64,000 bases of DNA from Candidatus Acidiferrum sp. (GTDB lineage Bacteria; Verrucomicrobiota; Verrucomicrobiia; Limisphaerales; UBA8199): assembly GCA_035541055.1 (NCBI GenBank), contig DATKNZ010000401.1:3743-67742 (forward strand), written 5' to 3'. Made by a program: the position numbers and the translations under genes. Positions 1,461-39,629 of this stretch are shown piece after piece (the first letter of the stretch is position 1; each line of letters begins with the position of its first letter). Below the pieces are notes generated by a model that saw nothing but the letters and a program-made list of their open reading frames with translations, was not told the origin of the DNA and did not search any database.

Positions 1461-4400
1461 ATGAAAACAAACCTTATGCCTCACCATCATTCCTCGTTCA
1501 TCCGTTACGCCCTCGGCTGCCTGGCGCTGTTGCTGCCGGGCCTGGCCATGGCCGCGGTCACGTTCACCAATAACACGGCCATTAACGCCCTCAACACGAA
1601 CTACGATGGCATGGACATCGTGGTTACCAACTGCACGCTGACCGTGGATGGCGCGCACTCGTTCGCGAGCCTCCAAGTGCTCGACGGGGCCAACCTCACG
1701 CACACCGCCGCGCCGGCGGGGACCGTGGACGTCTGGGCGAGCGTCAGCAATGAGCTGCAGGTGCTGAGCGCTACCAACGCCGCCACGCTCTCGAATGCCT
1801 ACGTGCTCCCGGGCAGCATCGTGGTCCAGGACCCGACCGGGCAGACGAACTACGGGCTGGCAGTGGATTACACCCTTGACGTGGACTCGAACGGCATGAC
1901 GACGCTGCTGCTCCTGCCCAACTCGAACATCCCCGAGGGGAGCACGAACCTGGTCAGCTACTCGTATCGCGCGTCCGAAGTAACGGGCGGGCTTAGCCTC
2001 ACGGTCACCGGCGACGTGACGGTGGCCCAAGGGGGAACGATCAACACGGACGGCAGAGGCTACAGCGGCGGAATAGGGCCGGGGGCAGGCAGCCAGGCCG
2101 GCTCGCCGCTCAGCGGCAGCGGGGGAGGACAGGGTGGGACGGGCGGGCAAAGCGCTTCATTGGCGTCAGGGGGGTTCGCCAACGACTCGCTCCAGCAGCC
2201 TACGTATCTTGGGAGCGGCGGCGGTTCCGGCAGCGGCGGACTTGGCGGCACCGGTGGCGGGAGCATCAAGCTGGTGGTCGGCGGCACCCTGCGGGTGGAT
2301 GGAACGGTTTCGGCCAACGGCAGCACTGGCCTTAACGAGCGCTCCGGCGGCGGTTCCGGCGGCAGCGTATGGCTCAGTGCCCAGACCTTCGCCGGCAATG
2401 GGTTGATTCTGGCCAACGGCGGCGCAGGCGAGCCGGCCCAGGGCGGCGGCGGCGGCGGGGGGCGGGTGGCGGTCTGGTATGGCGTCAGCTCGTTCGGCGG
2501 CACGATGGCCACGCGTGGCGGCAGCGGCTACCAGCGTGGCGGCGCAGGCACGATCTACACCCGTGTGAACAGCCAGCCTGCGGGGCAGGTGCTGGTGGAT
2601 AACGGCGGGAAGGCGGGGGCCGCTACCATGTGGCTAACCACACCCGAGTTCTTTGACGTTACTGTGCAGGGCGGGGCCATGGTTTCGCTTGTCGGTGCTC
2701 CGGCTTGGGGCAACCTGTTGGTCGCCTCGAATGCGTCGGTCAGTGTCCCCTACAGCATAGCTGGGGCAATCAGCCTTACTGTTACGAACAATGTCACGGT
2801 CCAGGCAGGCGGCAGCATCAACGCCGATGGGTTGGGCAATGCCTCGGGTGCCGGCTCGGGCGAGGGCCACGCCGTCACAAGCGCTGGCAGTTACGCTGCG
2901 AGCGGCGGGGGCTATGGCGGGTATGGAGGCACGGCGAGTGCGTCAGCAATCCTGTCGGCGCTGGGCGGCGGCACATACGGCTCAGTGACCGCTCCCAATG
3001 AGCTGGGCAGTGGCGGCGGCCAGTACCTGCCCCAGTGCGTCAGCGGTGCGGGCGGAGGTCTTGTCATTCTAACCGTCAACGGCATGTTGCTCCTCGATGG
3101 CCAACTGTCGGCCAACGGCCTCGCCGGGGTGACCGAAGGCGGCGGCGGCGGCTCGGGCGGCGGGATACGCCTCACGGTCGGCACGCTGGCCGGGGCAGGC
3201 ACGATTTCGGCCAATGGCGGCGCGGGTTACGGCGCCGGCCTTGGAGGCGGGGGCGGGGGCGGCGGTGGACGCATCGCCCTGCAGTACGGCATGAACCTGT
3301 TCTTCGGCAGAATGACTGCCTGGGGCGGCGTGGGGACCTTCACCGGCGGCGCGGGCACGATCTACACCAAGGCCAACAGCCAGCCCTCGGGCCTGGTGCT
3401 GGCCGACAATGGGGGGCAGGCGGGAACGAACACGACCTTTGGCAGCGGAAGCGTGGGCACCGTTGACCTCACCGTCAGGAATGGAGCGGTGCTCGTCCCG
3501 CTAGTGTCGCAGACTGTCGGCACGTTGCTGGTCGGAACAAACGGCTGGCTGCTTATGAGCAATCAGTGGGTCACGGTGGCGGGCAATGCCACGGTTCAGC
3601 CGGGCGGGGGCATCATTGCCGACGCAACGGGCTACGGCGCGGGCTTGGGCACCGGTCGTGGCGGCTATCTCGTGATCAGCGCCGGGAGCGTTGCAGGTGG
3701 CGGCGGCTATGGAGGTTGTGGCGGCAGCAGCGGCTCGCTTCCGTCGCCGTCCGACGGTCCGGCTGCCGGAGGGACGACTTACGGATACCTGGCCGCACCT
3801 ACAGACATGGGCAGCGGGGGAGGCTCACCGGCAGGAACCGTTGCCCAGGGAGGTGTGGGCGGCGGCGCAATTCGGCTCAGCGTCACCGGCGTGCTGGAGG
3901 TGGACGGTAGGATTTCGGCGCTGGGCGGCGCGGCGCCGACCTCGAGCGGCGGCGGCGGTTCCGGCGGAAGCATTTTCCTGACGGTGGGCACACTGACCGG
4001 CGCGGGGACCATCGCCGCGAATGGCGGCATGGGCAACTACCTGGGCGGCGGGGGCGGCGGCGGGCGCATCGCCATCCTGTACGGAGGGTATGATTTCACG
4101 GGGCTGGTCTCGGCCTACGGCGGGGCCGGGTACATGAACGGCGGCGCGGGCACTATCTTTACGATGGCCAACAACTCGCCCTGGGGGCAGGTGGTTGCGG
4201 ACAACGGCGGCCAGGCGGGCACCAATACGAGCTGGCTCCAGACCAGCACAGTTGACCTGACGGTCAGGGGCGGAGCGGTGGTTTCGCCCCCGACATCACA
4301 ATCCCTCGGCTCGGTGGTGGTATCCTCGAATGGGACGCTTACCCTCAGCAGCCAAATCCTAACCGTAAGTGGGAGCATGACGGTTCAGGCCGGCGGCGCC

Positions 4401-7400
4401 GTGAGCGCGGATGGCACAGGGTATGGCAGCGGCCAAGGGACGGGCGCCGGCAGGTCTTATTCCATGAACGGTTATGTCGGCGGTGGCGGTGGTTACGGCG
4501 GCTACGGCGGGTCGGGCGCCAGCAACACCATCTCCTATTTAGCACCCGGCGGCACTACGTACGGGTCCTTCACATCGCCGATTGACCTCGGCAGCGGCGG
4601 CGGCGGATACGGACTGGCTTATGCCGGCTACGCCAACGGTGGCGCCGGCGGCGGGGCCGTGCGCCTGACGGTGAACGGCACGCTGCAAGTGGATGGACGA
4701 CTCTCCGCGCGCGGTTTGCCGGCCTCCGCCCCGAGCGCGGGCGGCGGCTCCGGGGGGACGATCAACCTGAGCGTGGGCTCGCTAGCCGGCTCGGGCGTGA
4801 TCTCGGCCAATGGCGGCGCGGGCCTCGGCCTGGGCGGCGGCGGCGGGGGTGGGCGCATTGCGATCACCCTGTCCGGCAACGCAAACACCTTCTCGGGGCA
4901 GATGACCGCTTACGGCGGCGACGGCTATGCGGTGGGCGGGGCCGGCAGCATCTATGTCAAGCCCTACAACGGGTCGGCCCCGATTGTCTTCGACAACGGC
5001 GGGCAAACGGGCACCAACTCCGGGTGGCCCACCGGCGGCACGTTCGACGTTACGATCAAGAATGGCGCGTCCCTGGCCCTGGTGGCTGCGACTTCGGTCG
5101 GCAACCTGGTGGTAGGCTCGAACGGTTGGATCTACGTCAGCGGCCAAAGCGCGCTCAGCGGGCAGACATTCTCGGTTAACGGGAATGCCACGATCCAGGC
5201 GGGCGGGGGCATCATCGCCGATGCCGGCGGCTACTCATATTACAATGGAGGGGTTGGACCGGGCGGCGGCACTTACCTTTCGCAAAGCAGCGGCTACGTC
5301 AGCAGCGGCGGCGGCTTTGGCGGGTTAGGTGGGGCAAGTGGCGGCACGACAAGCCTTGCGGGGGGCAAAACCTCCGGCCTGGTAACGGCCGGGGGGGCCG
5401 GCAGCGCGGGGGGTACCTACGCCAACTACTTCCTGGGGGGCGCCGGCGGCGGCGCGATTATCCTCAATGTCACCGGCACGCTCGAAGTGGATGGCCGCAT
5501 TTCATCGGCCGGCCAGGCAGGGCTCAGCCCCAATGCAGGCGGCGGCGCCGGCGGCGGGATCATGCTGACCGTCGGCACGCTGGCCGGCTCCGGTGTGATC
5601 GCGGCCAATGGCGGCGCCGGCAACGGCCTCGGCGGGGGCGGCGGCGGCGGACGGATTGTCGTCAATTACACTAAGCTGGCTTTCGACGGCCTGATGACCG
5701 CTTACGGCGGCAACGGCTACAACCGGGGAGGCGCGGGCACCATTTACACCAAGCCCAACAGCGCCGCCTGGGGGCAGGTGCTCGTGGATAATGGCGGCCA
5801 GGCCGGCGCCATCACAAGCTGGACGAGCGGCGGAACGCTTGACCTGACAATCAGCGGCGGCGGCAACGTCGGCCCGCAAGCCTCGAGCACTTACGGCAAC
5901 CTGCTGGTGACCTCGAACGCCTGGCTCAGCCTGACCAATCAGACGATCACGGTGGTGAGCAATGCGACGGTGCTGGCGGGCGGCGGCATCATCGCTGATT
6001 CCGCGGGCTATGGCGGCGGCTCAGGCCTGGGCTCCGGGAAGTATGTCTCTACCCCGATCGGTTACGTTGGCGGCGGCGGCGCTTACGGCGGCTACGGCGC
6101 AGCGGGGGGCGCGCCCTCGGGCTACTCGGCCTGGGGCGGGTTCCCCTATCCCATTGTCACCTCGCCCACGGGCCTGGGGAGCGGCGGCGGCACCATGGTC
6201 ACGGCTGGTCCGGCCACCGGGAGCGCAGGCGGCGGGGTCGTTCGCCTGAACGTCACGGGCCTGCTGCTGGTCAATGGCCGGGTCTCGGCTAATGGCGGGG
6301 CAGGCATCGCCCAAGGCTCGGGCGGCGGCTCGGGCGGCAGCGTGTGGTTGAACGTCGGCACGCTGGCCGGCGGGGGCACGATCTCCGCCAACGGCGGCGC
6401 CGGGAACGAGTTGGGCGGCGGCGGCGGCGGCGGCTGTGTGTCCGTCCAATACAGCACGAGCGCCTTCGAGGGGCTCATCTCCGCTTACGGCGGGGGCGGT
6501 TACGCGTGGGGCGGCGCCGGCACCGTTTATACGCAGGCCAAGAGCCAGATTACCGGACAGTTGTTTGTGGATAATGGCGGCAACTCCGGCACCAACACCC
6601 CGGTGCCTTACCTGGCGCCCTTTGACCTGACCATTCGTGGCGGGGCCGTAGCTTATCCTTCCGCCTCGCCTCTCTTGCTCAGCAATCTTTATGTGAACTC
6701 GGGCGGCGTCTTCACCAGCCTGAACACGTCGAGCAACCTGGACCTGACGGTGCTCGGCAACGCGACCGTTGACGCCAGCAGCGCGATCAGCGTGGACGCC
6801 AAGGGCTTCTCCGTCATCCGCTGGCCAGGCCCCGGGCCCGGCGCGGGCACGCTCACCAACTACGACGGCAGCGGCGGCGGCTATGGCGGTCAGGGCGGCG
6901 CCTCCGCGTCCGGCCCCGGCGGCGGCACCTACGGCTCGGTGCAGCAGCCGGTGGACCGCGGCAGCTCCGGCGGCGCGAGCGGGGTCGGCGGCGGCTCGGA
7001 AGGCGGCGGCGCAATCAAGCTGACCGTGGGCGGGTTGCTGGCCCTGAACGGCCGGCTCAGCGCCGAAGGCGACGCGGGCCTGCAGGACGATTCCGGCGGC
7101 GGCTCAGGCGGCAGCGTATGGGTCACCGCCGCAGCGCTGGCTGGCACCGGCGCCATCACCGCGGACGGCGGCATGGGGCAACTGTGGGATGGCGGCGGCG
7201 GCGGCGGCGGACGCATCGCCGTCTATGCTCTGGCGAACAGCTTTACCGGCAGCATGTCGGCCACCGGCGCCACGGGGTTCTTCCCTGGCCAGAACGGTTC
7301 CATTTACACCAGTGCCACTCCACCCCCGCCGGTCGTGACGACTTCGCCCACAGGCACCCTCAATAGCGCGGTCGGCATTCTGGGCATTACTTTCAGCACG

Positions 7401-8090
7401 CCGGTCAACGCGGCTTCGGTCAACCCGACGACGGTGGGCCTCATCGCCCCGGGCGGCTTAACGGTCAGCAACCTTGTGGTGCAATCGATCAATCCCTACG
7501 CGTTCCAGGTCGTTGCCCCGCTGCAATCCGCCCAGGGCACTTATCTCATCACGGTGGGGCCGGGCGTGCAAAACTTCCTCGGACTGCCTGTGTCGCAGGT
7601 CTATACTGGTTCCTTCGCCATCGCCTGGAGCACCGTGCAGGGCACCGTCACGGACACCAACGGCCTGCCCGTAGCCGGCGTCGTCATCCAGCCCGACAGC
7701 GGCACTCCCTCCACCACCACGGACACGAATGGCCAGTATGTGCTCAGCGTACCCCCGGGGGTGACCTTCCACGTGACGCCCTCCGCCCCGGGCCTGTCCT
7801 TCATCCCCAGCTATCGCACCTACAGCAGCGTCAGCAGCCCGATCTCCGGCGAGAACTACACTGCGGTAAGCGCCGTCGTGCCCACCCTCGCGACGCAGGT
7901 CCAGAGCAATGGCCTGTCGCTGACCTGGTATGGCTTGTCCAACGTCACGTACCAGCCGCTCTACTCGACGAACCTGGTGGACTGGTATCCCTATAACAGC
8001 ACCATCCCCGGCACCAACGGGCCGCTGGAGTTGGATGTCCCGCTGGACACCGGCCCCATCATGTTCTTCAGGATGGGCGTGACTTACTAA
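1461..8090 (+). CDS. Giant secreted glycine-rich repeat protein (2209 aa), function unknown
   Basis: Longest ORF in the window. Signal-peptide-like 'ALGCLALLLPGLAMAAV'. Seven internal ~263-aa units, each with 'TVQAGG.I.ADG.GY', 'GGAGGGA(I/V)RL.V.G.L.VDGR(I/L)SA', 'GGGGGGGRIA' and 'GGAGTIYT...GQV(L/V)(V/A)DNGG.AGTNT'. The tail has a carboxypeptidase-regulatory-like segment 'GTVTDTNGLPVAGVVIQPD...TDTNGQYVLSVPPG' and ends 'MFFRMGVTY'. Confidence 0.85.
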   Translation: MKTNLMPHHHSSFIRYALGCLALLLPGLAMAAVTFTNNTAINALNTNYDGMDIVVTNCTLTVDGAHSFASLQVLDGANLTHTAAPAGTVDVWASVSNELQVLSATNAATLSNAYVLPGSIVVQDPTGQTNYGLAVDYTLDVDSNGMTTLLLLPNSNIPEGSTNLVSYSYRASEVTGGLSLTVTGDVTVAQGGTINTDGRGYSGGIGPGAGSQAGSPLSGSGGGQGGTGGQSASLASGGFANDSLQQPTYLGSGGGSGSGGLGGTGGGSIKLVVGGTLRVDGTVSANGSTGLNERSGGGSGGSVWLSAQTFAGNGLILANGGAGEPAQGGGGGGGRVAVWYGVSSFGGTMATRGGSGYQRGGAGTIYTRVNSQPAGQVLVDNGGKAGAATMWLTTPEFFDVTVQGGAMVSLVGAPAWGNLLVASNASVSVPYSIAGAISLTVTNNVTVQAGGSINADGLGNASGAGSGEGHAVTSAGSYAASGGGYGGYGGTASASAILSALGGGTYGSVTAPNELGSGGGQYLPQCVSGAGGGLVILTVNGMLLLDGQLSANGLAGVTEGGGGGSGGGIRLTVGTLAGAGTISANGGAGYGAGLGGGGGGGGGRIALQYGMNLFFGRMTAWGGVGTFTGGAGTIYTKANSQPSGLVLADNGGQAGTNTTFGSGSVGTVDLTVRNGAVLVPLVSQTVGTLLVGTNGWLLMSNQWVTVAGNATVQPGGGIIADATGYGAGLGTGRGGYLVISAGSVAGGGGYGGCGGSSGSLPSPSDGPAAGGTTYGYLAAPTDMGSGGGSPAGTVAQGGVGGGAIRLSVTGVLEVDGRISALGGAAPTSSGGGGSGGSIFLTVGTLTGAGTIAANGGMGNYLGGGGGGGRIAILYGGYDFTGLVSAYGGAGYMNGGAGTIFTMANNSPWGQVVADNGGQAGTNTSWLQTSTVDLTVRGGAVVSPPTSQSLGSVVVSSNGTLTLSSQILTVSGSMTVQAGGAVSADGTGYGSGQGTGAGRSYSMNGYVGGGGGYGGYGGSGASNTISYLAPGGTTYGSFTSPIDLGSGGGGYGLAYAGYANGGAGGGAVRLTVNGTLQVDGRLSARGLPASAPSAGGGSGGTINLSVGSLAGSGVISANGGAGLGLGGGGGGGRIAITLSGNANTFSGQMTAYGGDGYAVGGAGSIYVKPYNGSAPIVFDNGGQTGTNSGWPTGGTFDVTIKNGASLALVAATSVGNLVVGSNGWIYVSGQSALSGQTFSVNGNATIQAGGGIIADAGGYSYYNGGVGPGGGTYLSQSSGYVSSGGGFGGLGGASGGTTSLAGGKTSGLVTAGGAGSAGGTYANYFLGGAGGGAIILNVTGTLEVDGRISSAGQAGLSPNAGGGAGGGIMLTVGTLAGSGVIAANGGAGNGLGGGGGGGRIVVNYTKLAFDGLMTAYGGNGYNRGGAGTIYTKPNSAAWGQVLVDNGGQAGAITSWTSGGTLDLTISGGGNVGPQASSTYGNLLVTSNAWLSLTNQTITVVSNATVLAGGGIIADSAGYGGGSGLGSGKYVSTPIGYVGGGGAYGGYGAAGGAPSGYSAWGGFPYPIVTSPTGLGSGGGTMVTAGPATGSAGGGVVRLNVTGLLLVNGRVSANGGAGIAQGSGGGSGGSVWLNVGTLAGGGTISANGGAGNELGGGGGGGCVSVQYSTSAFEGLISAYGGGGYAWGGAGTVYTQAKSQITGQLFVDNGGNSGTNTPVPYLAPFDLTIRGGAVAYPSASPLLLSNLYVNSGGVFTSLNTSSNLDLTVLGNATVDASSAISVDAKGFSVIRWPGPGPGAGTLTNYDGSGGGYGGQGGASASGPGGGTYGSVQQPVDRGSSGGASGVGGGSEGGGAIKLTVGGLLALNGRLSAEGDAGLQDDSGGGSGGSVWVTAAALAGTGAITADGGMGQLWDGGGGGGGRIAVYALANSFTGSMSATGATGFFPGQNGSIYTSATPPPPVVTTSPTGTLNSAVGILGITFSTPVNAASVNPTTVGLIAPGGLTVSNLVVQSINPYAFQVVAPLQSAQGTYLITVGPGVQNFLGLPVSQVYTGSFAIAWSTVQGTVTDTNGLPVAGVVIQPDSGTPSTTTDTNGQYVLSVPPGVTFHVTPSAPGLSFIPSYRTYSSVSSPISGENYTAVSAVVPTLATQVQSNGLSLTWYGLSNVTYQPLYSTNLVDWYPYNSTIPGTNGPLELDVPLDTGPIMFFRMGVTY
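1960..7320 (+). repeat. Seven tandem in-frame repeat units of roughly 780-810 bp inside the giant ORF
   Basis: Codons for the landmark GGAGTIYT / GGAGSIYV / QNGSIYT recur near 2545, 3352, 4142, 4936, 5730, 6512 and 7290. Each unit also carries a (GGC)n-rich run coding poly-Gly followed by R(I/V)A. Confidence 0.8.
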
Positions 8091-8126: not shown

Positions 8127-8339
8127 AGGCCCGCGGAATGGACGCCCGAAGCGGTTGCTTCGAGCGGCACCAGCGGAGCGCTGGGCCATGACGGCCTCAA
8201 GGCATGGTTGCGTGACGGCACTGTCGTGCCGGAGCCCCCGTCGGGAGTGCTAAGGGTGGTCGGCGCGGCGGGAGTCCGGATTAGTGGGCGCACGGGCGAG
8301 GGGACGAAGCTGTTGAAGCTTGATCGCAGCCGTGTTTAG
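8127..8339 (+). pseudogene. Decayed 3' remnant of a PEP-CTERM protein gene (no start codon)
   Basis: The frame-0 reading between TGA 8124-8126 and TAG 8337-8339 gives '...GLKAWLRDGTVVPEPPSGVLRVVGAAGVRISGRTG...'. It parallels '...DAFNAWFREGTFVPEPASGLLMLLGAASLFFTRRLGRS' of the next gene at protein level. It is also visibly similar at nucleotide level (8199-8275 versus 8856-8935). The hydrophobic stretch is interrupted by Arg and there is no ATG. Confidence 0.5.
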
Positions 8340-8363
8340 TATCTATAATCCTCCCAGCTTACT

Positions 8364-10766
8364 ATGAAGACGTATCTACTTGTCATCCCCACCATCCTCC
8401 TCCTGTCCGCTTTGGCCGCACCCGGCCAGGGCACGATGGTTTATGACCAACAGAGTGCCACGAACAGAAGCTTCTACGCGGGTTATCCGTTTCAGGCGGA
8501 GCAACCTGCGGGCCAGTCCTTTACGCCCGCACTTAACACCGTCGGGTTCGTTCAGTTCGAGTTCATTGCCCCCTCTCCAGGGGCTGGGCTGGGGGCGACT
8601 GTTTTCGTGAACTTGCGTTCTGATTCGCTGACCGGGACGATCCTGGACTCGACGGCGCCCGTGTTTATGCCAAACGGCTTTAACGGTATCACGAACTTCC
8701 TATTCAGCGCACCGGTCGCTGTTACCTCGGGAATAACCTATTACCTCCAGCCGGTGCTCCAGTCAGGCGACAGTTCTTGGGGCTTGGTCGCTGGCCCATT
8801 CAATTACTTAGGCGGAACGTTCTTCTTCAACGGAGCACCTAATCCCGACGCCTTTAATGCATGGTTTCGCGAGGGCACCTTCGTGCCCGAGCCAGCCTCG
8901 GGGCTGCTGATGCTGCTCGGTGCCGCCAGCCTCTTTTTTACTCGGCGGTTGGGGCGCTCGTGTTGCTTGGTGTCGCTTGTCGTTGGAGGCTCTCTGGCCG
9001 TCTGCACTACTAGGGCGGACACCGCCCAGACGGCGGCAGCCCCGAGCTATTATTCGGCCCAGCACCCGGAGTGGCCACCAGTGCCTACTCCGACCCCAGG
9101 CTGCGCCGCGGCGCCAATACACGGTAGGCCCGGGGACTGGCTAATGGCAGACCAAACTTATGACTACGCTGTCTCGGATGTGGCCCTGAGCATAGCCAGC
9201 CCGATGGGTTTAACGCCGAACGGCCCGTCGCCGCTGGACCACGGCACAGCGTTGTGGCTTGAGATCGAACAGCCGGTCTCGGGGAATGTTCCGGTTACAG
9301 CCCACAACGTGGATGGCTCACAATGGTTCCAGCTACTCAGCACGACCAACATCATGGCACACCCAGATTGGTCGGTAGAGGAGCAGGTCCAGCAACCTGC
9401 CAGTACCGACCTGCCTTTGATCGTCCCGGAGAATGGTCGGCCTAACGTGTCCTTTCGGGCGGCGCAGTCCGATACGCTGATGTCCGTAAGCAGCGTGGGT
9501 AATGTCCTAAGGCCCAACGATTGCTACTCAAGCCAGCCGAGCTATTTCAACATCCAGCGCAGTTACGCTTCGTCAGGTTCCTATCCGCCCTTACAGGTCT
9601 GGTATTGCGTTGGCGGCACAGCTACTAATGGCGTGGATTACACGTATCTGGATGGCTCTGCCACGTTGCCGAGCGGTGCGAGCTCATACCAGATCAAAGT
9701 TGATGCCCTCCCGAGTCTCGTAACTTCAAACCTCACCCTCGTCCTGACACTGGTGGCCACCAACGGCTACCTTGTGGACTCGAATGGGCCTTCGGCGACG
9801 ATGATCATTGGGGCGAATCGGTTCGGGGCAGTGGCCGAGCTTGATTGGCAGGCCAATGGGCTGGATTACGATCCTCAAAGCCAGTCACTGGTAGTATCCG
9901 AGGAAACCCAATATCCCCCTTACCATAATTTCCTGCGGATTGATGCCAGCGGGGTGAATCCGTGGCTGGACGTGTCGGGCCTATGGGAAGAGGTCTCGCT
10001 GGCCATCGTGAAGACGAGCGCCAATGGCTTCACCCTGGGGGACATGTACTTTGATAGTTCCAGTTGGCCGAATAACCAGCCTACCAACCCACGCATCGGC
10101 TGGGCATCCGGGGGCAATGTGGTGCCCGACTGGGTGACCCTCCCTCCGCCAGCCTCGCCGCTGGGAGGGCTGTATGTGGACCAGACCGGCGTGTTCGGCG
10201 GGGACCTGATTGCGACGGCAGGAGGCGACGAGGACGCTTCCGGCACCGACGGGCGGGTGTGGCGGATTAACTCGTCAGGCCAGGTCACGCTGGTGACTAA
10301 CACGGGGACGCCTTTGGGCGGCGTGATCACGGTCACGAACGACGCGGCGCCATGGGGGCCATGGGCAGGCAAGATTCTCACCGGCCAGGGGCAGGAGTGG
10401 CCCTGGCCCAGCGACCCGGAGATTTACGCCATAGATACCAACGGGCAGGCGACAACGTATTACCTGGGGATTGAACCCGAGCACTTCAATTTCATTCCTG
10501 CCAACCAGTCCTTCTACTGCGTCGGTCCTGATACTTGGAACCGATGGCAGGTTTGGAAGGTGCCGGCCTCCGTGTTCACCGGGCATGTCGGCGATCTGCT
10601 CATCACGGGCATAGGGGACCCGGCGAGTGGGCGGCTGGGGCTGTTTATGGTGCATTGGGACGCCGGGACGACTAACTTTGTTATCCAGCAGATTGCCGCG
10701 CCGCTCGGCCTTGTGATGGACCTGGAGGAGGGCACGTTCGCGCCCATTGAGCTTCCGTGTCTCTGA
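8364..10766 (+). CDS. Secreted protein with an internal PEP-CTERM sorting motif, followed by a Calx-beta-like module and a beta-propeller-like C-terminal region
   Basis: 800-aa ORF. Signal peptide 'MKTYLLVIPTILLLSALAAPGQG'. A PEP-CTERM tag (VPEP + hydrophobic helix + RR) lies at aa 174-195 instead of the C-terminus. Calx-beta-like 'VGGTATNGVDYTYLDGSATLPSGASSYQIKV'. Confidence 0.8.
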   Translation: MKTYLLVIPTILLLSALAAPGQGTMVYDQQSATNRSFYAGYPFQAEQPAGQSFTPALNTVGFVQFEFIAPSPGAGLGATVFVNLRSDSLTGTILDSTAPVFMPNGFNGITNFLFSAPVAVTSGITYYLQPVLQSGDSSWGLVAGPFNYLGGTFFFNGAPNPDAFNAWFREGTFVPEPASGLLMLLGAASLFFTRRLGRSCCLVSLVVGGSLAVCTTRADTAQTAAAPSYYSAQHPEWPPVPTPTPGCAAAPIHGRPGDWLMADQTYDYAVSDVALSIASPMGLTPNGPSPLDHGTALWLEIEQPVSGNVPVTAHNVDGSQWFQLLSTTNIMAHPDWSVEEQVQQPASTDLPLIVPENGRPNVSFRAAQSDTLMSVSSVGNVLRPNDCYSSQPSYFNIQRSYASSGSYPPLQVWYCVGGTATNGVDYTYLDGSATLPSGASSYQIKVDALPSLVTSNLTLVLTLVATNGYLVDSNGPSATMIIGANRFGAVAELDWQANGLDYDPQSQSLVVSEETQYPPYHNFLRIDASGVNPWLDVSGLWEEVSLAIVKTSANGFTLGDMYFDSSSWPNNQPTNPRIGWASGGNVVPDWVTLPPPASPLGGLYVDQTGVFGGDLIATAGGDEDASGTDGRVWRINSSGQVTLVTNTGTPLGGVITVTNDAAPWGPWAGKILTGQGQEWPWPSDPEIYAIDTNGQATTYYLGIEPEHFNFIPANQSFYCVGPDTWNRWQVWKVPASVFTGHVGDLLITGIGDPASGRLGLFMVHWDAGTTNFVIQQIAAPLGLVMDLEEGTFAPIELPCL
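8883..8960 (+). other. PEP-CTERM (exosortase-type) sorting signal located internally in the ORF
   Basis: Encodes 'VPEPASGLLMLLGAASLFFTRRLGRS'. This is the canonical VPEP motif, transmembrane helix and basic cluster. No stop codon follows and the reading frame continues for about 600 more codons. Confidence 0.8.
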
Positions 10767-10786: not shown

Positions 10787-12409
10787 CTATAGTCCGAGGT
10801 CGTGCTGTTCGTGGCCTTTGGTTTTGGCCTTGGGGGCTTTCTTGAAGGTCTCGTCCAGGGCGGCGACGGTGCTCGGGCGTTCCAGGCCTTTGCCCTCCAT
10901 CAGCTCTTTGACCGTCCGCAGTTGGAGGCGGGGGTAGCGCTGGCCGTTGGTCTTGTGCTCGTAAAAGCCGGCGCTGACGGCTTCGGCCGTCATGTCCCGG
11001 GTCGGCGGCTGGAGCGAGATCAGTAGGCCCATGCCGGCTTTCTCCCGGTCAAGCACGCCGCGCAGATCGCGCACGTCTTTGACGCCGGTCTTGCCGCCTT
11101 TGACCTGGATGATGATCTGCTCGGGCCTGGTGGCGCGGGGGTCATCGCGGAAGAGGATTTTGCCGTCTATGCCGTGGTCGGCTCCCTTCTTCTGCTCGAC
11201 GGGCCGGGCGCCGACGAGGCCCAGCGCCCACCATTGGAATTGGAATTTATCCTGCTCGGCCAGGACGTAGGCTTCGTTGGGAGTCGTGGGCTCGCCGATG
11301 GTGTTGATTTCCACCTTCTCGCCATAAGTGTCACGCAGGCGGTTTTTGATGAGGGAGGTGGCGAGCTGGGTAATGTCTATGCCTATCCATTGGCGGCCCA
11401 GTTTCTCAGCCGCGTCAATCGTCGTGCCGCAGCCGCAGAACGGGTCGAGCACCAAGTCGCCGGGGTTGCTGCTGGCGTTAATGATACGCTCAAGAAGCGC
11501 CACGGGCTTCTGAGTAGGGTACCCAAGACGCTCCGAACCGACGGGGTTAATCCGATTGATGTCGTCCCAAATATCCGTGGCCAGTTTGCCTTTCAGTTCC
11601 TCTCGGTAACGCTTGTACTGTGGCATCGTGCCCTTTGGAGGCCAGTAGATCCGTCCCTCTGCGTCCAGTTGGTCGAGTCTTTGGACTGTGAACTTCCAGT
11701 GCATTCCCTTTGAGCCGGGATCAATTCCCCTCCAAGCCTTTCCCGAGTCGCCTTTGCGGGTTCCGGCAGCACAGAGGTCTGCACGCCAGTAGAGCCTGCC
11801 ATCCCCATCATCGAATTTGTAGTATTTGTCCAAGTATTCCTCCGCATAATCACTCCGCGGGGAGTTCCACGTGGGATTCTCGCCGACCGCGTAGTAGAGG
11901 ATGACATCGTGGACGGGACCGTACTTCCTTGAAGCGCTGTGGGCGCTCGTTCTCTTCCAGATAATCTCGTTACGAAAGTTCTGCCCGCCAAATACAGCGT
12001 CACATAGCAGCTTGAGGTAATGCGAGGCAGTAGGGTCGCAGTGTAGATACAGCGATCCGGTAGGCTTGAGCACGCGGCGTAGTTCGATGAGGCGCGGGGC
12101 CATCATGGCGAGGTAGGCCATCATATCGTTCTGGCCGAGGAAGGTGCGGAAGGCCTGCATGACTTCGCTGACCTTGCCGGGCTGGGTGACGAGGTCCTGG
12201 TAGGCTTTCTCGCTTTCAACGTTCCAGTGCCAGGTGTCTTCGAAAGCCTGGATTTGGCTGGCAGCGTCAGTGCCATCCTTTTCGTGGAAGAAGGCGTTGT
12301 AGTTCTGGGCGGAGTTGAAAGGCGGGTCCAGATAGACGAGATCAACGACCTCGTCCTTGATGTAGCGGCGGAGGATGTCGAGGTTATCGCCGTAGTACAG
12401 CGTGCCCAT
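10787..12409 (-). CDS. Beta-class N6-adenine/N4-cytosine DNA methyltransferase fused to a C-terminal Mrr-like (restriction endonuclease fold) domain
   Basis: Motif IV 'VYLDPPFNS' near the N-terminus and motif I 'VLDPFCGCGTTIDAA' near aa 325 give the beta-class order, with a variable region between them. The C-terminal 'GADHGIDGKILFRDD...IIIQVKGGKTGVKDVRDLRGVL' fits the D...(Q/E)xK pattern of Mrr-type nuclease folds. Confidence 0.85.
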   Translation of the reverse strand: MGTLYYGDNLDILRRYIKDEVVDLVYLDPPFNSAQNYNAFFHEKDGTDAASQIQAFEDTWHWNVESEKAYQDLVTQPGKVSEVMQAFRTFLGQNDMMAYLAMMAPRLIELRRVLKPTGSLYLHCDPTASHYLKLLCDAVFGGQNFRNEIIWKRTSAHSASRKYGPVHDVILYYAVGENPTWNSPRSDYAEEYLDKYYKFDDGDGRLYWRADLCAAGTRKGDSGKAWRGIDPGSKGMHWKFTVQRLDQLDAEGRIYWPPKGTMPQYKRYREELKGKLATDIWDDINRINPVGSERLGYPTQKPVALLERIINASSNPGDLVLDPFCGCGTTIDAAEKLGRQWIGIDITQLATSLIKNRLRDTYGEKVEINTIGEPTTPNEAYVLAEQDKFQFQWWALGLVGARPVEQKKGADHGIDGKILFRDDPRATRPEQIIIQVKGGKTGVKDVRDLRGVLDREKAGMGLLISLQPPTRDMTAEAVSAGFYEHKTNGQRYPRLQLRTVKELMEGKGLERPSTVAALDETFKKAPKAKTKGHEQHDLGL

Positions 12410-12667: not shown

Positions 12668-13018
12668 GGGCGGTATCGAGGTGTGCCAATGCCGTCGATT
12701 TGCTGAGACCTATGCTGCCAAACCACAAATCGGGCTCCTGGTTACTCCGCCAGCCACAGCGTGCGCAGGCGTCTTTCACCCACCCTGATCATTCCTCACC
12801 ACATTATTCGTCTGCTCACAGCGCATCAGGCTTTCCTTGAGAGGCAGCATCATTGGCAGCAATCCAAGCAAATTGCGGCCAGGCTCGGCCGTTTCGAAGG
12901 GGTCGGATGCTAATTCCAGCCGGCAGAAAGCCGCGTTTGCTCTGCTGGCACACCCATTGCTCTGCAGCGTTCGAACGCCGTGGGCCGGATTGCCTGTCGC
13001 GGCCAAGCACGTCGAGCG

Positions 13019-14518
13019 ATGCTTTTTAACCACTACGACTCCGAAGGCTTTTTCGACGAGATGATCGCCGAGAACGGAGGTCCACGCTCATCCGTCGCGG
13101 CGCTCTCCCGCGCCATCGAGGCCCTTCCGGCTGGCGAACTGACTTCCCGCCAAGCCGGCGCCGAGCGTGCCTTGTTGCAGATGGGCATCACGTTCAATGT
13201 CTATGGCGAGCAGGCCGGCGTGGAGAAGATATTCCCTTTCGACATTGTGCCTCGGGTCGTCTCGGCCGCTGAATGGACCCGACTGGAAAAGGGCCTCAAG
13301 CAGCGGATCCATGCCCTGAATCTGTTTATTGACGACCTGTACCACGGGCAGAAGATCCTCAAAGACGGCATCGTGCCGCGGGAGATCATTCTCTCCGCCA
13401 GGTCGTTTCGCCAGCAATGTGTGGGCTGGAATCCGCCCCGTGGCATCTGGTGCCATATCACCGGAACGGACCTGGTCCGTCACAGCGACGGCGAGTTCTA
13501 TGTGCTGGAAGATAACCTGCGCTGTCCGTCGGGCGTGTCCTACGTGCTGCAGAACCGGGAAGTGATGAAGGGCCTGTTCCCGAGGGTGGTCGCCTCGCTC
13601 AGGGTGCGGCCCGTGCTGGATTACCCGCTGAAGCTGCGCGACATGCTGGAGTACCTGACGCCCGACACCGTGGTGCGACCGCGTGTGGTGCTGCTCACGC
13701 CCGGCGTCTACAACTCCGCCTACTTCGAGCACAGCTTCCTGGCGCAGCAGATGGGGATCGAACTGGTCGAGGGTCGCGACCTCGTGGTCGAGGACGGCGT
13801 GGTTCTCATGCGCACGACGCGCGGCTTTGAGCGCGTGGACGTGATCTACCGCCGGGTGGATGATGATTTCCTCGACCCGCGCTGCTTCCGACCCGACTCG
13901 ATGCTGGGCGTGCCCGGCCTGATGGAAGCTTACAAGGCCGGCAATGTCGCCCTCGCCAATGCTCCCGGCACGGGTGTGGCGGACGACAAGGTGGTTTATG
14001 CCTACGTGCCTCGGATCGTGAAGTACTACCTGGGGGAGGAGATCATCCTGCCCAACGTGCCGACGCATATCTGCGCCGAAGAACAGGACCTGCAGCACAC
14101 GCTCGCCAACCTGGACAAGCTGGTGGTCAAGGCAGCCAACGAGTCCGGCGGCTACGGCATGCTGGTCGGCCCGCACTCGACCAAGGAGCAGCGGGCGGAG
14201 TTCGCGGAGAAGGTGAAGGCCAATCCAAGGAATTACATCGCCCAGCCGACGCTCGCACTCTCGCGGGTGCCAACCATCTGCGGCGATCACCTGGAGGGGC
14301 GCCACGTGGATCTGCGTCCCTACATCCTGCACGGCAAGGACATCTTCGTCCTCCCCGGGGGCCTGACGCGCGTGGCGCTAAAGAAAGGCTCGCTGGTGGT
14401 GAACTCCTCACAGGGCGGAGGCAGCAAGGACACCTGGGTGTTGGCGGACCAGGCGAATGGCGAGTTGGAGCGGGTCAACGGCCACACGCCCTCGTGGCAA
14501 AAGCCTCATGAAGGCTGA
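13019..14518 (+). CDS. Circularly permuted type-2 ATP-grasp protein (COG2308-type amidoligase)
   Basis: '[16 protein letters not shown]', '[15 protein letters not shown]', '[15 protein letters not shown]' and '[17 protein letters not shown]' match this family. I chose the start at the internal ATG ([15 protein letters not shown]...) rather than the track start at 12980. Confidence 0.85.
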
Positions 14519-14530
14519 GGTCCTAAGGGC

Positions 14531-14746
14531 GAACGCCGAAGCCCGAAGACCGAGAGAAGGCCGAAGACCGAAACCCGAAGCAGTCAGCCGGCAGACCAGC
14601 GATGCGGGGCCGTCGGGAGTCTCCACGATAGCGAGACAGGTTAAGGCACAGTGTTCTCCAACGCTTCGGCTGGCCATGTGGACGGTGGCGGCTCCGGGCT
14701 TCGGACTTCGGGCCTCGGTCTTCGGGTTTCCCCCGACCTTCGGACT
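14531..14746. repeat. CCGAAGG-heptamer inverted-repeat element, copy A
   Basis: The left arm (14531-14580) is made of degenerate CCGAAG(G/C/A) heptamers. The right arm (14693-14746) is the complementary CTTCGG array. It shares 'AACCCGAAGCAGTCAGCC' with copy B. It fills the spacer between the ATP-grasp and alpha-E genes. Confidence 0.85.
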
Positions 14747-14752
14747 GCCGCC

Positions 14753-15739
14753 ATGCTGAGCCGGGTCGCAGATTCGGTCTATTGGATGAGCCGCTACGTC
14801 GAGCGCGCGGAGAACGTAGCCCGCTTCGTGGACGTGAACTACCAGCTCATGCTGGACGCTCCCGAGGGGCACGACCAGCAGTGGGAGCCGCTCGTCGCCA
14901 CGACGGGCGATCACGCGCAGTTCGCCAAACGGCATGGAGGGGCGACCGAGGAAAGCGTCACCAGGTTCCTCACATTCGAGAGCGAGAATCCCAACTCCAT
15001 TCTCTCCTGCCTGCGGGCGGCGCGCGAGAACGCCCGCAGCGTGCGCGAAATCATCTCCTCAGAGATGTGGCTGCAGCTAAACCGCTTTTACCTGATCGTG
15101 AAATCCGCCGCCGAATCCAGCGATGGGCTGGAGGACGCTCAGGCCTTCTTCGACGCAGTGAGGCAGGCCAGCCATCTCTTTAGCGGCATCACCGAAGCCA
15201 CCATGACGCAGGGCGAGGCGTGGCATTTCTCGCGGCTGGGCCGCATGCTGGAGCGCGCCGACAAGACCTCGCGCATCCTGGACGTGAAGTATTTCCTCCT
15301 GCTCCGTTCCGCCGAGGAGGTGGGCACTCCGTACGACGCTATCCAGTGGGCGGCGGTGCTTCGCTCGGCCTCAGCCTTCGAGATGTACCGCAAACGGCAC
15401 GGGCGCATCTCGCCCAAGGGCGTGGCGGACTTCCTCATGCTGGACCGGGAGTTCCCGCGCGCCATCCAGTACTGCCTGGTGGCGGCGCGCGACTCCTTGC
15501 ACGCGATCAGCGGCACACCCTTGGGCACCTTCCGGCACCCGCCGGAGAAGCTCCTTGGCCAGCTTTGCTCGGACCTTTCCTTCACGACGGTGGATGAAAT
15601 AGTGAAGCAAGGCCTGCATGAATACGTGGACGATCTCCAGACGAAGATGAACCAGGTAAGCGACGGCGTTTACGAGACCTTCTTTGCCCAGAAGAACCCC
15701 GAACCCATGCGCAAGGGCTCGTGGTCTGCAGCCCAATGA
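14753..15739 (+). CDS. Alpha-E domain protein (COG2307)
   Basis: 'MLSRVADSVYWMSRYVERAENVARF' and 'GEAWHFSRLGRMLERADKTSRILDVKY' are typical alpha-E signatures. The upstream part of the track ORF (from 14651) is translated repeat element. Confidence 0.85.
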   Translation: MLSRVADSVYWMSRYVERAENVARFVDVNYQLMLDAPEGHDQQWEPLVATTGDHAQFAKRHGGATEESVTRFLTFESENPNSILSCLRAARENARSVREIISSEMWLQLNRFYLIVKSAAESSDGLEDAQAFFDAVRQASHLFSGITEATMTQGEAWHFSRLGRMLERADKTSRILDVKYFLLLRSAEEVGTPYDAIQWAAVLRSASAFEMYRKRHGRISPKGVADFLMLDREFPRAIQYCLVAARDSLHAISGTPLGTFRHPPEKLLGQLCSDLSFTTVDEIVKQGLHEYVDDLQTKMNQVSDGVYETFFAQKNPEPMRKGSWSAAQ

Positions 15740-15777
15740 CTGATTGTGCGCCAAAACCGGGAAGCCCGACCGCGGTT

Positions 15778-15840
15778 GGTAGCGATGCCTCGCCAAGGCG
15801 TCCGTTCTCACCACGGACGCCTCGGCGAAGCGTCCCTACC
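15778..15840. repeat. GGTAGGGACGCCTCGCCGAGGCGTCC nested-hairpin element, copy 1
   Basis: GGTAGCGATGCCTCGCCAAGGCGTCCGT / ACGGACGCCTCGGCGAAGCGTCCCTACC. Each arm is itself palindromic. A second copy lies at 28861-28928. Confidence 0.85.
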
Positions 15841-15864
15841 TGCCTCTTCCGAATGTAGGCCTGC

Positions 15865-18800
15865 ATGTCCATCCACATCGCCCTACACCACCGGACGCAC
15901 TATCGCTATGACCGGCCCGTTACGCTCGGGCCGCAGATCGTGCGTCTCCGCCCCGCGCCGCACTGCCGCACGCGCTTGCTGAGCTACTCGCTCCGCGTTG
16001 CGCCGGACAAGCACTTCATTAACTGGCAGCAGGACCCGCAGTCCAACTACCTCGCCCGGCTTGTCTTCCACGAGCCGACGCGCGAGTTCCTGGTGGAGGT
16101 GGACCTGGTCGCCGAAATGGCGGTGCTCAATCCGTTCGACTTCTTCCTGGAGGCCCAGGCGGAGCGGTTCCCGTTCAAGTACGACACGGCCCTCGACCAC
16201 GAGCTTGCGCCCTTCCTGCTGCGCTTGCCGCCTACGGCGGAGTTCACGAAGTACCTGGGCGTCCTGAAACGCGAGCTGTTGCACAACGGTAACGGCCGAC
16301 ATGAGGCTCAGAGTGAGCGGGGCAAGGGACTGAACTTCCTCACGTCGGCTGTGATAGCGGCGGATGGGCGCCCCCGAACGATTGACTTCCTGGTGGCCTT
16401 GAATCAGCGCCTCTGGCGCGACATCCGCTACCTTATCCGGCTCGAACCCGGCGTGCAAACGCCCGAGGAGACTCTGCAGCTTGCCAGCGGCTCATGCCGT
16501 GACTCGGCCTGGCTGCTCTGCCAGTTGCTCCGCCATCTTGGCCTCGCCTCGCGCTTCGTCAGCGGCTACCTGGTTCAGCTCACGGCCGACGTGAAATCAC
16601 TCGAAGGTCCGAGGGGACCGGAGAAGGACTTCACCGACCTGCACGCATGGTGCGAGGTTTACCTGCCCGGCGCAGGGTGGATCGGGCTTGATCCCACCAG
16701 CGGCCTGCTCGCCGGTGAGGGCCACATCCCGCTGGCCTGTGCGCCTGATCCCAGCAGCGCCGCGCCCATCACCGGGTTGGTGGATGAATGCACCTGCGAC
16801 TTCAGCCACGACATGAAGGTTACCCGGGCCTTCGAGTCCTCGCGCGTCACCAAGCCCTACACCCAGGAGCAGTGGCGCGAGATCGAGTCCCTTGGCCAGC
16901 AGCTCGACGCCGAACTCCGGCTCCACGATTGCCGGCTCACGATGGGTGGCGAGCCGACGTTCGTCAGCATGGACGATATGGATGGCGAGGAATGGAATAC
17001 GAGCGCCCTCGGTCCAACCAAGCGCCGCCTGGCTGATGGCTTGATGAAACGCCTTAAGCGCCGCTTCAGCACTGGGGCTTTTCTGCATTATGGGCAGGGC
17101 AAATGGTATCCGGGCGAATCGTTGCCGCGGTGGGCCCTTGCGTGCTATTGGCGTAGAGATGGCCAGCCCATCTGGCTCAACGACGCGCTGTTTGCCGACG
17201 AATCCAAGAGCTACGGCTTCGATGAGCGACGGGCAGAGGAGTTCATCTACGCGCTGGCTGAGCGCCTCGCCTGCGGTGCCGATTGGATTATGCCCGCGTT
17301 CGAAGACACCTGGTATTACCTCTGGAAGGAGCGCCGCCTGCCGACGAACACGGACCCGTTCAAGTCGAACCTGAGGAACGAGGAAGACCGCGTGCGCCTG
17401 GCGAAGATATTCGAGCAGGGCCTTGATAAGATCGTCGGGTACGCGCTGCCTTTGGAGCGGCACTGGGGTCCTGGCCGGCCATACTGGTTCAGCGGGCCAT
17501 GGTTCTTGCGGTCGGAGCGCTGCTACCTGCTTCCCGGCGATTCGCCCATGGGTCTTCGGCTGCCGCTCGATTCGCTGCCGCACGTCAGCGCCGCGGATTT
17601 CCCGTACGTCCACGAGCAGGAGCCATTCGAGGACCGGCGCCCATTGCCGCCGCGCCCGCAGAAGGACTTACAGAGATACTTCTCCCCGGAGTGGTTCGAA
17701 GGACGCGGCTTGCCTCCGGGCGAGGCAGGCGGGCTCGCGCAAAGCATGCGCCAGCAAAGGGCTTCGACGCAGGAGCCGTCGCCCGATCTCTTTCGCCAGC
17801 CTGTCCGCGGCGAGTCGGCCGCGTGGATTGTCCGCACGGCGCTCTGTGTAGAGCCGCGCCAGGGAAGGCTTCACGTTTTCATGCCCCCAGCCAGGACGCT
17901 GGAGGACTACCTCGGCATCGTCGCCGCCGTCGAGGACACCGCCGAACTGCTCGACACACCGGTCATTATTGAGGGCTACACGCCGCCCTTTGATCCGCGC
18001 CTCAACGTCATCAAGGTCACGCCTGACCCGGGCGTCATCGAGGTGAATATCCATCCGGCGCAATCCTGGGACGAGATGGTGCGGAATACGGAGGTGCTCT
18101 ATGAAGAAGCGCGACAGGCGCGGCTGGGAACGGAGAAGTTCATGCTCGATGGCCGGCACACCGGCACGGGCGGGGGCAATCACATTGTCATTGGCGGCTC
18201 GACGCCTGCCGGTAGCCCGCTGCTGCGACGGCCCGATCTGCTGCGCAGCCTGGTCGCCTACTGGCAAAACCATCCATCATTGTCCTTCCTCTTCAGCGGC
18301 CTGTTCATCGGCCCCACTAGCCAAAGCCCCCGCATTGACGAGGCGCGAAACGATTCGCTGTATGAGCTGGAAGTGGCTTTCCACGAGCTCGACCGGCAGC
18401 TAGCCCCCCACTGCAAGCCCTCGGCCTCGGGCGCAAGCCCGATGATCCCGCCCTGGCTCGCCGACCGTTTGTTCCGCAACCTTCTCATAGACGCGACCGG
18501 CAACACTCACCGCGCCGAGTTTTGCATTGATAAGCTCTACTCGCCAGACAGCGCCAGCGGCCGGCTCGGCTTGCTGGAGATGCGCGCTTTCGAGATGCCA
18601 CCGCACGCCCGCATGAGCCTCGCCCAGCAACTCCTGCTGCGCACGCTTATCGTCAAATTCTGGCGCCAGCCCTACACCAACGGCCTTGTCCGCTGGGGCA
18701 CTGACATCCACGACCGCTGGATGCTGCCGCACTTCGTCTGGAGCGACTTCGCCGATGTCATTGAAGACCTGCAAGCCGGCGGCTACGCGATGAAGCCCGA

Positions 18801-19368
18801 GTGGTTCGCGCCCCATTTCGAGTTCCGCTTCCCCCCATTCGGCGACCTGGAAGTGAAGAATCTCCTCGTGGAGATCCGCCAGGCGTTGGAGCCCTGGCAC
18901 GTCCTGGGCGAAGAGCAAGGGGCGGGCGGCGCTGTGCGCTACGTGGATTCCAGCGTCGAGCGCGTCCAGGTGAAGGCGCGCGGACTCACTGACACGCGGC
19001 ACGTGATCAGCGTCGGGGGCATCGCTATCCCACTTCATCCGACCGGCACCAACGGTGAATACGTGGCTGGCGTCCGTTACCGCGCCTGGCAGCCGCCGAG
19101 TTGCTTGCAACCGACCATCGGCGTTCACTCGCCGCTGGTCTTCGACATAGTGGATACTTGGAACGGTCGCAGCGTCGGCGGTTGCACCTACCACGTCGCG
19201 CATCCCGGCGGCCGGAGCCATTCGACTTTCCCCGTAAATGCCTGGGAAGCGGAGAGTCGCCGGCTCGCGCGCTTCTTCCGCTCCGGCCACACACCCGGCC
19301 CGATGCAGCCCCGGGTTGTCGAACGCAACCCTGATTTCCCCTTCACGTTGGACCTGCGCGCGGTGTGA
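15865..19368 (+). CDS. Large transglutaminase-family protein with a DUF2126-type putative amidoligase region
   Basis: N-terminal '[30 protein letters not shown]' (bacterial transglutaminase N-domain). Cys/His/Asp core '[14 protein letters not shown]...FVSGY' and '[21 protein letters not shown]'. A conserved extension of about 800 aa follows, as in ~1100-aa COG4196-type proteins. Confidence 0.85.
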   Translation: [1167 protein letters not shown]

Positions 19369-19411
19369 GTGGCACGCAGCGTGTACCCAGCGGGGACGAG
19401 AGGGGGCCGCT

Positions 19412-19607: not shown

Positions 19608-19644
19608 CGCAACGGAATTCAAGCGGGCGATCATCAAACACAGG

Positions 19645-33371: not shown

Positions 33372-33415
33372 GCGCGGGCGGCCTACAGGGGCAGCCGTTT
33401 GCGCTTGTAGGCCGC

Positions 33416-36697: not shown

Positions 36698-36698
36698 C

Positions 36699-37142: not shown

Positions 37143-37160
37143 GCGAGCGCGGCAGCTCCG

Positions 37161-38009: not shown

Positions 38010-38043
38010 GGCAACCCGACCGTGACCGTGGAATCCCGCAGCA

Positions 38044-39612: not shown

Positions 39613-39629
39613 GCCATAGCCACTCGGTT

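Follow-up and report, generated by a model that had tools for sequence, protein, structure and literature searches.

Can a PEP-CTERM sorting signal work from the middle of a protein? Sorting by PEP-CTERM signals and exosortases occurs widely among environmental bacteria, but little is understood of how it works, and both the definition of the signal and its annotation place it strictly at the C-terminus. The question is raised by an open reading frame (ORF) in a 64,000 nt stretch of DNA (positions 3,743–67,742 of contig DATKNZ010000401.1, assembly GCA_035541055.1; below, "the window", with coordinates counted from its first nucleotide). The ORF runs on the + strand for 800 amino acids (aa) without an in-frame stop and is the NCBI protein HVM50115.1, annotated "PEP-CTERM sorting domain-containing protein", yet its PEP-CTERM tag lies in its first quarter and not at its end. 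On balance it seems probable that its product is a dual-signal secretory precursor, which would give rise to two mature exported proteins and which stems from an old in-frame joining of two partner genes that related Verrucomicrobiota have side by side.

The tag (VPEPASGLLMLLGAASLFFTRRLGRS) is encoded exactly at nt 8883–8960, where the preliminary description of this DNA had placed it, and corresponds to aa 174–199. It is made up of VPEP (the PEP at nt 8886–8894), a hydrophobic helix (ASGLLMLLGAASLFFT; nt 8895–8942) and the basic cluster RRLGRS (nt 8943–8960), that is, a Pro-Glu-Pro followed by at least ∼13 hydrophobic residues and then by an Arg-rich cluster, as a PEP-CTERM signal should be. 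The same protein also has the expected N-terminal signal peptide, which was judged by inspection and by alignment with paralogs, so that its end at aa 23 is approximate. The NCBIfam model TIGR02595 (PEP_CTERM) scores 18.2 bits against the whole ORF and 20.6 bits against its first 199 aa, in both cases above the curated cut-off of 16, and the Pfam model PF07589 gives the internal tag 16.8–19.2 bits, slightly under its cut-off of 20.7. No second PEP with a hydrophobic stretch behind it was found in any of the six frames of the window, so the tag of this ORF is the only one there. Its position is what sets it apart. It does not lie at the extreme C-terminus; 601 residues follow the basic cluster before the protein ends, beginning with the second hydrophobic segment that had been noted before (CCLVSLVVGGSLAVC, aa 200–214), behind which there are still about 585 residues.

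A sequencing or assembly error, which had been offered as one explanation of this layout, is rejected. The ENA assembly, the Logan assembly of SRR8879131 and the NCBI record all contain the identical ORF, and a protein search found about ten full-length homologs (P0002–P0010; 773–822 aa, 46–60% identical, ∼100% query cover), in all of which the frame is open through the tag. The alignment of these orthologs also answers the earlier question of whether they are one gene or two: they are a single open frame, and a stop codon right after the Arg cluster, which would make two ordinary genes, is absent from every intact ortholog and occurs only in two damaged copies (L010 and L007, discussed below). 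The ortholog P0002 is present on six contigs from several samples, and over the 600 aa downstream of the tag the window's frame follows the conserved orthologs residue for residue. Within the tag, none of the 21 aligned N-modules (the N-terminal domain and its tag) departs from P175, E176, P177, L182 and L184. Because the PEP is invariant in all of these, against a mean column identity of 52%, the PEP-CTERM signal is far beyond chance. The same internal tag is carried by AT-rich distant relatives of ∼1000–1100 aa that have Big_9/Cadherin_5 domains (P0015–P0022), and at the type-B loci L017, L020–L022, L024 and L027 the frame is open for 800–910 codons past the PEP while the other two frames are stop-rich.

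The fused family is limited to metagenome-assembled genomes (MAGs) of Verrucomicrobiota (Limisphaerales, Verrucomicrobiia, subdivision 3), with the exception of a few that are labelled differently. The source MAG of HVM50115.1 is itself labelled "Candidatus Acidoferrum sp.", a label that is doubtful, since nearly all relatives in genomes come from Verrucomicrobiota MAGs; several of the relatives' MAGs have odd labels as well (Bifidobacteriaceae, Haliangiales).

The nature of the second hydrophobic segment is suggested by proteins that correspond only to the part of the ORF beyond it (the C-part). A profile search with the C-part found homologs of ∼580–690 aa that are without the N-module (P0208, P0199, P0202, P0204, P0194 and P0198, among others), and these open with an ordinary N-terminal signal peptide exactly at the place of the window protein's second hydrophobic segment. 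For example, P0208 starts MATMKLLLRSSCQLTLAALLLSSLPAPA|QTTPP...FWSAAHPEWPPFP and has the sequence YYSAQHPEWPP ∼20 residues past the site. Because the signal peptides of the unfused homologs align with the basic cluster, the segment and TRA|D of the window protein, the second hydrophobic segment is best understood as the C-part family's signal peptide that has come to be without its own Met and n-region, with the Arg cluster of the tag sitting there instead. Its h-region would be CCLVSLVVGGSLAVC and its c-region TTRA, with RRLGRS as the n-region. By the rules used for Sec signal peptides, aa 194–218 have a charged n-region, an h-region of 10–15 residues and small residues at −3 and −1; they begin at residue 194 and not at an N-terminus, and in the alignment they occupy the position that the N-terminal signal peptide has in the unfused C-part homologs. 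A signal peptidase I site is predicted between A218 and D219 (TRA|D). Small −3/−1 residues are kept before the mature start in nearly all fused homologs compared, and examples of sites in the homologs are TRA|D, SASA|G, TSA|Q, AGA|Q, ASA|Q, ANA|Q, VHA|S and VQA|A. An AlphaFold model of aa 1–223 (mean pLDDT 80.9) has a β-sandwich at aa 23–175 and then two helices, at 179–195 and 201–214.

The same layout of PEP, helix, basic loop, hydrophobic segment and small-x-small site also joins two N-domains to one another in P0014, P0025 and P0026, where the internal segment ends in the ...AQG|(T/L)xYDQQS signal-peptide junction that is usual in the N-domain family, and it is found with Big_9/Cadherin_5 cargo in P0015–P0022. 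In P0013 (locus L010) translation of the first N-module continues through ∼50 aa of spacer and enters the next gene at that gene's own start and signal peptide, which looks like a cruder, early stage of the fusion process. This locus (L010, 1509–3640) carries three tandem N-domain modules, the first of them without a stop.

The N-terminal half, too, has standalone relatives. A profile search with the N-module in 1.84 billion cluster representatives found 2041 relatives at E ≤ 1e-3, 304 of them at E ≤ 1e-30, and most of the top matches are proteins of 190–215 aa that comprise a signal peptide, the N-domain and a PEP-CTERM tag at the true C-terminus. The distance from the PEP to the protein end is 21–45 aa in 91 of 143 occurrences of the motif (mode 27) and more than 60 aa in 48. 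Two standalone N-domain paralogs lie directly upstream of the ortholog P0002. Furthermore, at all six unfused loci examined (L031, L032 and L034–L037) the C-part gene has immediately behind it, on the same strand, a gene for a ∼200 aa N-domain protein with a terminal PEP-CTERM tag; the gap between the two genes is −59 to +38 nt, and the N-domain proteins are 40–65% identical to the window's N-module. The genes of the N-domain and C-part families are thus neighbors in some genomes and fused in others. The unfused C-part proteins have no anchor of their own, and their genes are paired with a gene for a PEP-CTERM protein in all loci examined.

In a neighbor-joining tree of the propeller region, which forms the C-terminal part of the protein, the fused proteins are a single clade nested among homologs that have a signal peptide only (the type-B relatives P0015–19 stand outside this tree, as they do not share the propeller region over at least 300 aa). 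Within the fused clade the pairwise identities of the N-part and of the C-part are correlated (r = 0.60). This single clade and the correlation fit one old fusion followed by vertical descent. The orthology of the fused genes has some further support from an N6_N4_Mtase/Mrr_cat gene that the window and L003, the locus of the ortholog P0004, have in common on the downstream side. The earlier proposal that a small PEP-CTERM gene fused to the gene downstream of it, which has a signal peptide, describes the history correctly, in that standalone versions of both halves exist; its other element, a loss of the stop codon between them, is rejected as a recent event, since the fused clade is old, conserved and monophyletic, with members that have diverged to 46–60% identity. 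The features of the ORF are collected in Table 1.

Table 1. Features of the fused ORF and its upstream flank in the window
Feature	Coordinates	Strand	Basis and remarks
Promoter-like TTGATC-18 nt-TATAAT	8320..8349	+	14 nt 5′ of ATG; consensus scan, 10/12 matches, weak evidence
Fused precursor ORF (putative)	8364..10766	+	Single 800-aa frame
N-terminal Sec-type signal peptide MKTYLLVIPTILLLSALAAPGQG, aa 1–23	8364..8432	+	Inspection; helix 7–18 in model; aligns with signal peptides of ∼200-aa standalone paralogs
N-domain, aa 24–173, jelly-roll-like β-sandwich	8433..8882	+	Model, pLDDT 80.9
Internal PEP-CTERM tag, aa 174–199	8883..8960	+	TIGR02595 score, invariant PEP, helix 179–195
Internal signal-peptide-like segment, aa 200–218	8961..9017	+	Helix 201–214; conserved small-x-small; aligns with signal peptides of unfused homologs
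Predicted mature C-part start, aa 219–297, low-confidence, probably disordered	9018..9254	+	pLDDT < 50, model residues 1–75
Two β-sandwich modules, aa ∼298–377 and ∼393–483	9255..9812	+	Model; second Calx-beta-like
Six-bladed β-propeller-like domain, aa ∼488–800	9825..10763	+	Foldseek against PDB

Taken together, the conserved features of the sequence, the homology that links each half to independently secreted proteins with signals in terminal position, the gene pairing and the single clade suggest a membrane topology, two cleavages and a partnership of the products, as follows. The N-terminal signal peptide would start Sec export of the ∼150 aa jelly-roll N-domain, and the PEP-CTERM helix (aa 178–193) would act as a stop-transfer sequence that leaves RRLGRS in the cytoplasm. 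RRLGRS would double as the n-region for aa 200–214, which would restart translocation as an internal signal peptide and take the ∼580 aa C-part across the membrane. Signal peptidase I would cut after TRA218 and so free the C-part, an exosortase would recognize the PEP and remove or transfer the N-domain, as for the standalone paralogs, and the residual helical hairpin would be discarded. The outcome would be two exported proteins in equimolar amount that probably act together; with no anchor in the C-part family, the exosortase-sorted N-domain may plausibly tether to the cell surface a propeller protein that would otherwise be without one. This order of signals (signal peptide, stop-transfer, basic loop, re-initiating signal) is self-consistent with the positive-inside rule and predicts that both folded parts lie outside the cytoplasmic membrane.

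The alternative that survives best, unlikely in our view though not negligibly so, is that the hairpin serves as a membrane anchor and that the protein stays whole or is cut at just one of the two sites; the product would then be an inner-membrane protein with both domains periplasmic, and the PEP-CTERM tag a mere transmembrane helix. Two adjacent helices with a basic loop between them are indeed a classical helical hairpin. However, a plain anchor needs neither the PEP that is invariant in 21 of 21 N-modules nor a conserved −3/−1 site, and both are retained though the hydrophobic cores between them vary freely; such retention is expected if both cuts persist, and for this reason the two-product precursor is favored. 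In addition, the unfused relatives release each half as a secreted protein in its own right. A genuine two-part precursor, the last of the explanations that the preliminary description had put forward, is on these grounds the best-supported functional reading, with cleavages that are predicted from the conservation of the PEP and of the small-x-small site.

Several points weigh against the two-product precursor. No exosortase gene was found in the window (30 larger ORFs scanned with Pfam, together with precomputed annotations of the flanks) or in the sequences on either side of the related loci, and the presence of an exosortase in the genome is predicted solely from the many terminal PEP-CTERM paralogs in the lineage. 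The cleavages are likewise predictions, the site being placed by the −3/−1 rule and by alignment. After the signal peptidase cut the N-terminal fragment would still bear ∼20 extra residues, including the second membrane helix, and we know of no case in which exosortase processing of a non-terminal signal has been shown. Rare long-tailed copies of PEP-CTERM are suspected of being nonfunctional (Haft et al. 2006, PMC1569441), which also speaks for the anchor. The fused arrangement is dispensable in some genomes, because some relatives carry broken copies (L006–L010). Finally, the unfused cassettes run from the C-part gene to the N-domain gene, the reverse of the fused order; because of this reversal the fusion is not a simple loss of a stop codon within an unfused cassette.

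It is improbable that the locus amounts to two genes in effect, with the C-part made mainly from an internal start such as the TTG at L196 (MGRSCC...) and the read-through product a minor one. A start at this TTG would yield a plausible signal peptide (MGRSCCLVSLVVGGSLAVCTTRA), and the standalone C-part homologs do start in this manner. However, none of the intact orthologs has a stop that ends the upstream protein, and a start within the hydrophobic run would forfeit the basic n-region. There is no conserved internal ATG, and the junction has no Met or other conserved start-capable codon in the protein alignment or in the DNA of the type-B loci; a consensus scan found no promoter-like site before the internal signal peptide. 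An internal start codon or promoter was rejected as a candidate on these two counts. The same kind of scan gave only one + strand match near the start of the whole gene, the promoter-like sequence of Table 1.

Artefact or decay, meaning a sequencing or assembly error, a recent stop loss or a functionless pseudogene, is a very improbable account of the fused frame. A run of six T's (nt 8934–8939) does lie inside the tag, and slippage by −1 on it would bring the frame to a stop at nt 9009–9011; some relatives are visibly broken, and the spacer read-through of P0013/L010 is raw in appearance. Against this stand the agreement of the three assemblies, the six contigs of P0002 and the match of the downstream 600 aa to the orthologs, all described above, and the orthologs are fused although they are without the T6 run, in a clade that is old. 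The broken relatives themselves are of several kinds. L007 (Limisphaerales MAG palsa_1440) has an in-frame CAG to TAG change exactly at the first mature residue and a TGG to TGA change further on (nonsense codons at 1897–1899 and 3277–3279) and is otherwise intact; it is probably a fresh pseudogene. In L010 (GenBank MAG SPRUCE_325) a 5 nt tandem duplication of CCTGC at 3632–3642, inside the second hydrophobic segment, splits the gene, and the JGI contig L038, which encodes the intact P0005, matches L010 at all other aligned bases of a ∼200 nt stretch across the junction; the duplication may reflect a true fission or a pseudogene, or else an assembly fault. L006, L008 and L009 are truncated forms. 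These damaged relatives are broken copies or assembly faults, and not tidy two-gene versions of the locus.

Least probable of all is a programmed −1 frameshift on the T6 run that would give a short N-domain protein ending in ...LFFYSAVGALVLLGVACRWRLSGRLHY* beside the full-length protein: the −1 frame does mimic a terminal tag, with a hydrophobic stretch, a basic cluster (RWRLSGR) and a stop 24 codons on (nt 9009–9011), but the base before the run is a C, so that the heptamer is imperfect, and as neither a slippery run nor a comparable −1 product is found in the orthologs L003 and L004 or at the type-B loci, this candidate was rejected as not conserved.

Pfam and NCBIfam searches with the N-domain and the C-part gave no match beyond PEP-CTERM, all others being sub-threshold with E values of 0.04 and above, and the fold matches of the N-domain are weak (PHR, TNF-like and CBM6/35 domains, TM ≤ 0.5). 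Within the low-confidence leader of the C-part, the motif YYSAQHPEWPPVP at aa 229–241 (nt 9051–9089) is kept in fused and unfused homologs and strongly conserved, with the consensus [FY][YW]S.Q.PEWPP.P; in the unfused homologs the shared form (FYS.Q..PEWPP.P) comes ∼20 residues past the signal peptide. The Calx-beta-like module mentioned in the preliminary description stands in part. The window protein itself gives only 13 bits with PF03160 (E = 0.11; aa 417–449, around GTATNGVDYTY), where the gathering cut-off is 27 bits, but the aligned region passes that cut-off in the homologs P0188 (31 bits), P0187 (49 bits) and P0179 (69 bits); the second β-sandwich is thus Calx-beta-like by homology, not by direct score. 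The propeller-like domain has no Pfam sequence-family match. Foldseek searches of the PDB with the C-part model (pLDDT 76.7) matched it to 6s5u (target-normalized TM 0.56–0.59), 2qe8, 3e5z and 2iat, with E values of 1e-7 to 1e-5 and target-normalized TM of 0.47–0.59 overall, and in the model its fold resembles those of strictosidine synthase, gluconolactonase (SGL) and DFPase. There is also a conserved Cys two residues from the C-terminus (...APIELPCL).

Among the neighbors in the window, the gene directly upstream (nt 1461–8090, +) is a giant Gly-rich ORF of 2209 aa with about six long internal repeats (GGGGSGG... and "GGAGTIYT" blocks); its sole precomputed Pfam match is CarboxypepD_reg, and it has no PEP-CTERM tag. 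Immediately downstream and convergent (nt 10,787–12,409, −) lies a gene for 540 aa in which an N6_N4 DNA methyltransferase is fused to an Mrr_cat/NA-iREase1 nuclease-like part. There are two consecutive CP_ATPgrasp/Alpha-E/transglutaminase sets at nt 12,980–23,238 (+), in the second of which ATP-grasp and Alpha-E are fused in an ORF of 838 aa. A lipid or polyketide-like cluster at nt 32,076–42,351 (+) encodes a condensation-domain protein, a PEMT/ICMT methyltransferase, two SDRs, a FabA-like dehydratase, two ketoacyl synthases and a fusion of ACPS with a lipid A acyltransferase; a PEMT/ICMT gene is also found near the unfused cassette in L036. A surface protein of 1087 aa with Big_9, Cadherin, Ig and Laminin_G domains (nt 42,406–45,669, −) adjoins a TonB-dependent receptor (nt 45,702–47,756, −), and type-B fused relatives have Big_9/Cadherin_5 domains as well.

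The locus shows how two exported proteins can be fused without loss of either targeting signal, and through fusion and adjacency it ties an uncharacterized family of ∼200 aa PEP-CTERM proteins, with some 2000 cluster representatives, to one specific partner. Annotators should take ORFs of this kind neither for frameshift artefacts nor for ordinary "PEP-CTERM proteins". Whether exosortase depends on a free C-terminus is put to a natural test by the conserved clade, in which the tag is internal and a second export signal comes after it. As to the more specific proposal that this is a natural bacterial two-in-one secretory polyprotein, in which an exosortase signal and an internal Sec signal would share a basic loop as a cleavable hairpin and give 1:1 export of a surface-sorted anchor domain and its propeller partner, we find ourselves evenly divided. 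If it is true, exosortase works without a free C-terminus, the arrangement is a diderm, exosortase-based counterpart of the N-terminal LPXTG layout of pneumococcal Zmp proteins, and the junction is a reusable module and not a one-off, as it occurs with several cargoes in Limisphaerales and other Verrucomicrobiia. If the protein is left unprocessed, the junction is merely an unusual two-helix membrane anchor.

Compared with canonical substrates of PEP-CTERM/exosortase systems (EpsH, Xrt), the window protein has the same signal peptide, invariant PEP, ∼16-residue hydrophobic helix and Arg-rich cluster, and the typical members of its N-domain family are ordinary PEP-CTERM proteins of ∼200 aa. It differs from them in that its tag is 601 residues from the C-terminus and has a further translocation signal and a large folded protein behind it; PEP-CTERM was defined as a C-terminal signal, with fewer than 10 further residues in 87% of cases (Haft et al. 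2006, PMC1569441). No earlier description of an internal PEP-CTERM signal or of an exosortase polyprotein was found in the literature searched. The closest known analog appears to be the N-terminal LPXTG layout of the pneumococcal Zmp/IgA1 proteases, and for one enzyme of this family the non-terminal sorting motif is described as needed for its localization (PMC3518915). That system uses LPXTG and sortase in a Gram-positive cell wall, whereas PEP-CTERM and exosortase in a diderm would be at work here; only a short stretch precedes the motif there and a complete folded domain of 150 aa precedes it here; and, unlike in the Zmp proteins, the window's N-domain also exists in relatives as a separate gene product encoded beside the C-part gene.

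Internal signal peptides that signal peptidase cuts are otherwise known best from viral glycoprotein polyproteins; bunyavirus Gn/Gc, hepatitis C virus core-E1 and the flavivirus structural proteins are polyproteins cut in this way (PMC7926653, PMC5402940). The likeness is that a transmembrane segment is followed by an internal signal sequence, so that one translation product gives, once signal peptidase has cut it, two membrane-translocated proteins; the difference is that such polyproteins are without a sortase or exosortase signal, most of them being viral and dependent on the eukaryotic endoplasmic reticulum machinery. The cytochrome b-c1 precursor FbcH of Bradyrhizobium japonicum is reportedly also an internal-signal polyprotein. 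Lastly, the locus resembles Rosetta-stone fusions of operon partners, in that adjacent, apparently co-translated genes in some genomes (−59 to +38 nt apart) are a single polypeptide in others. Unlike such fusions, both of its partners are exported proteins, so that two targeting signals have been kept back to back, and the order of the two genes is inverted relative to the unfused cassette.

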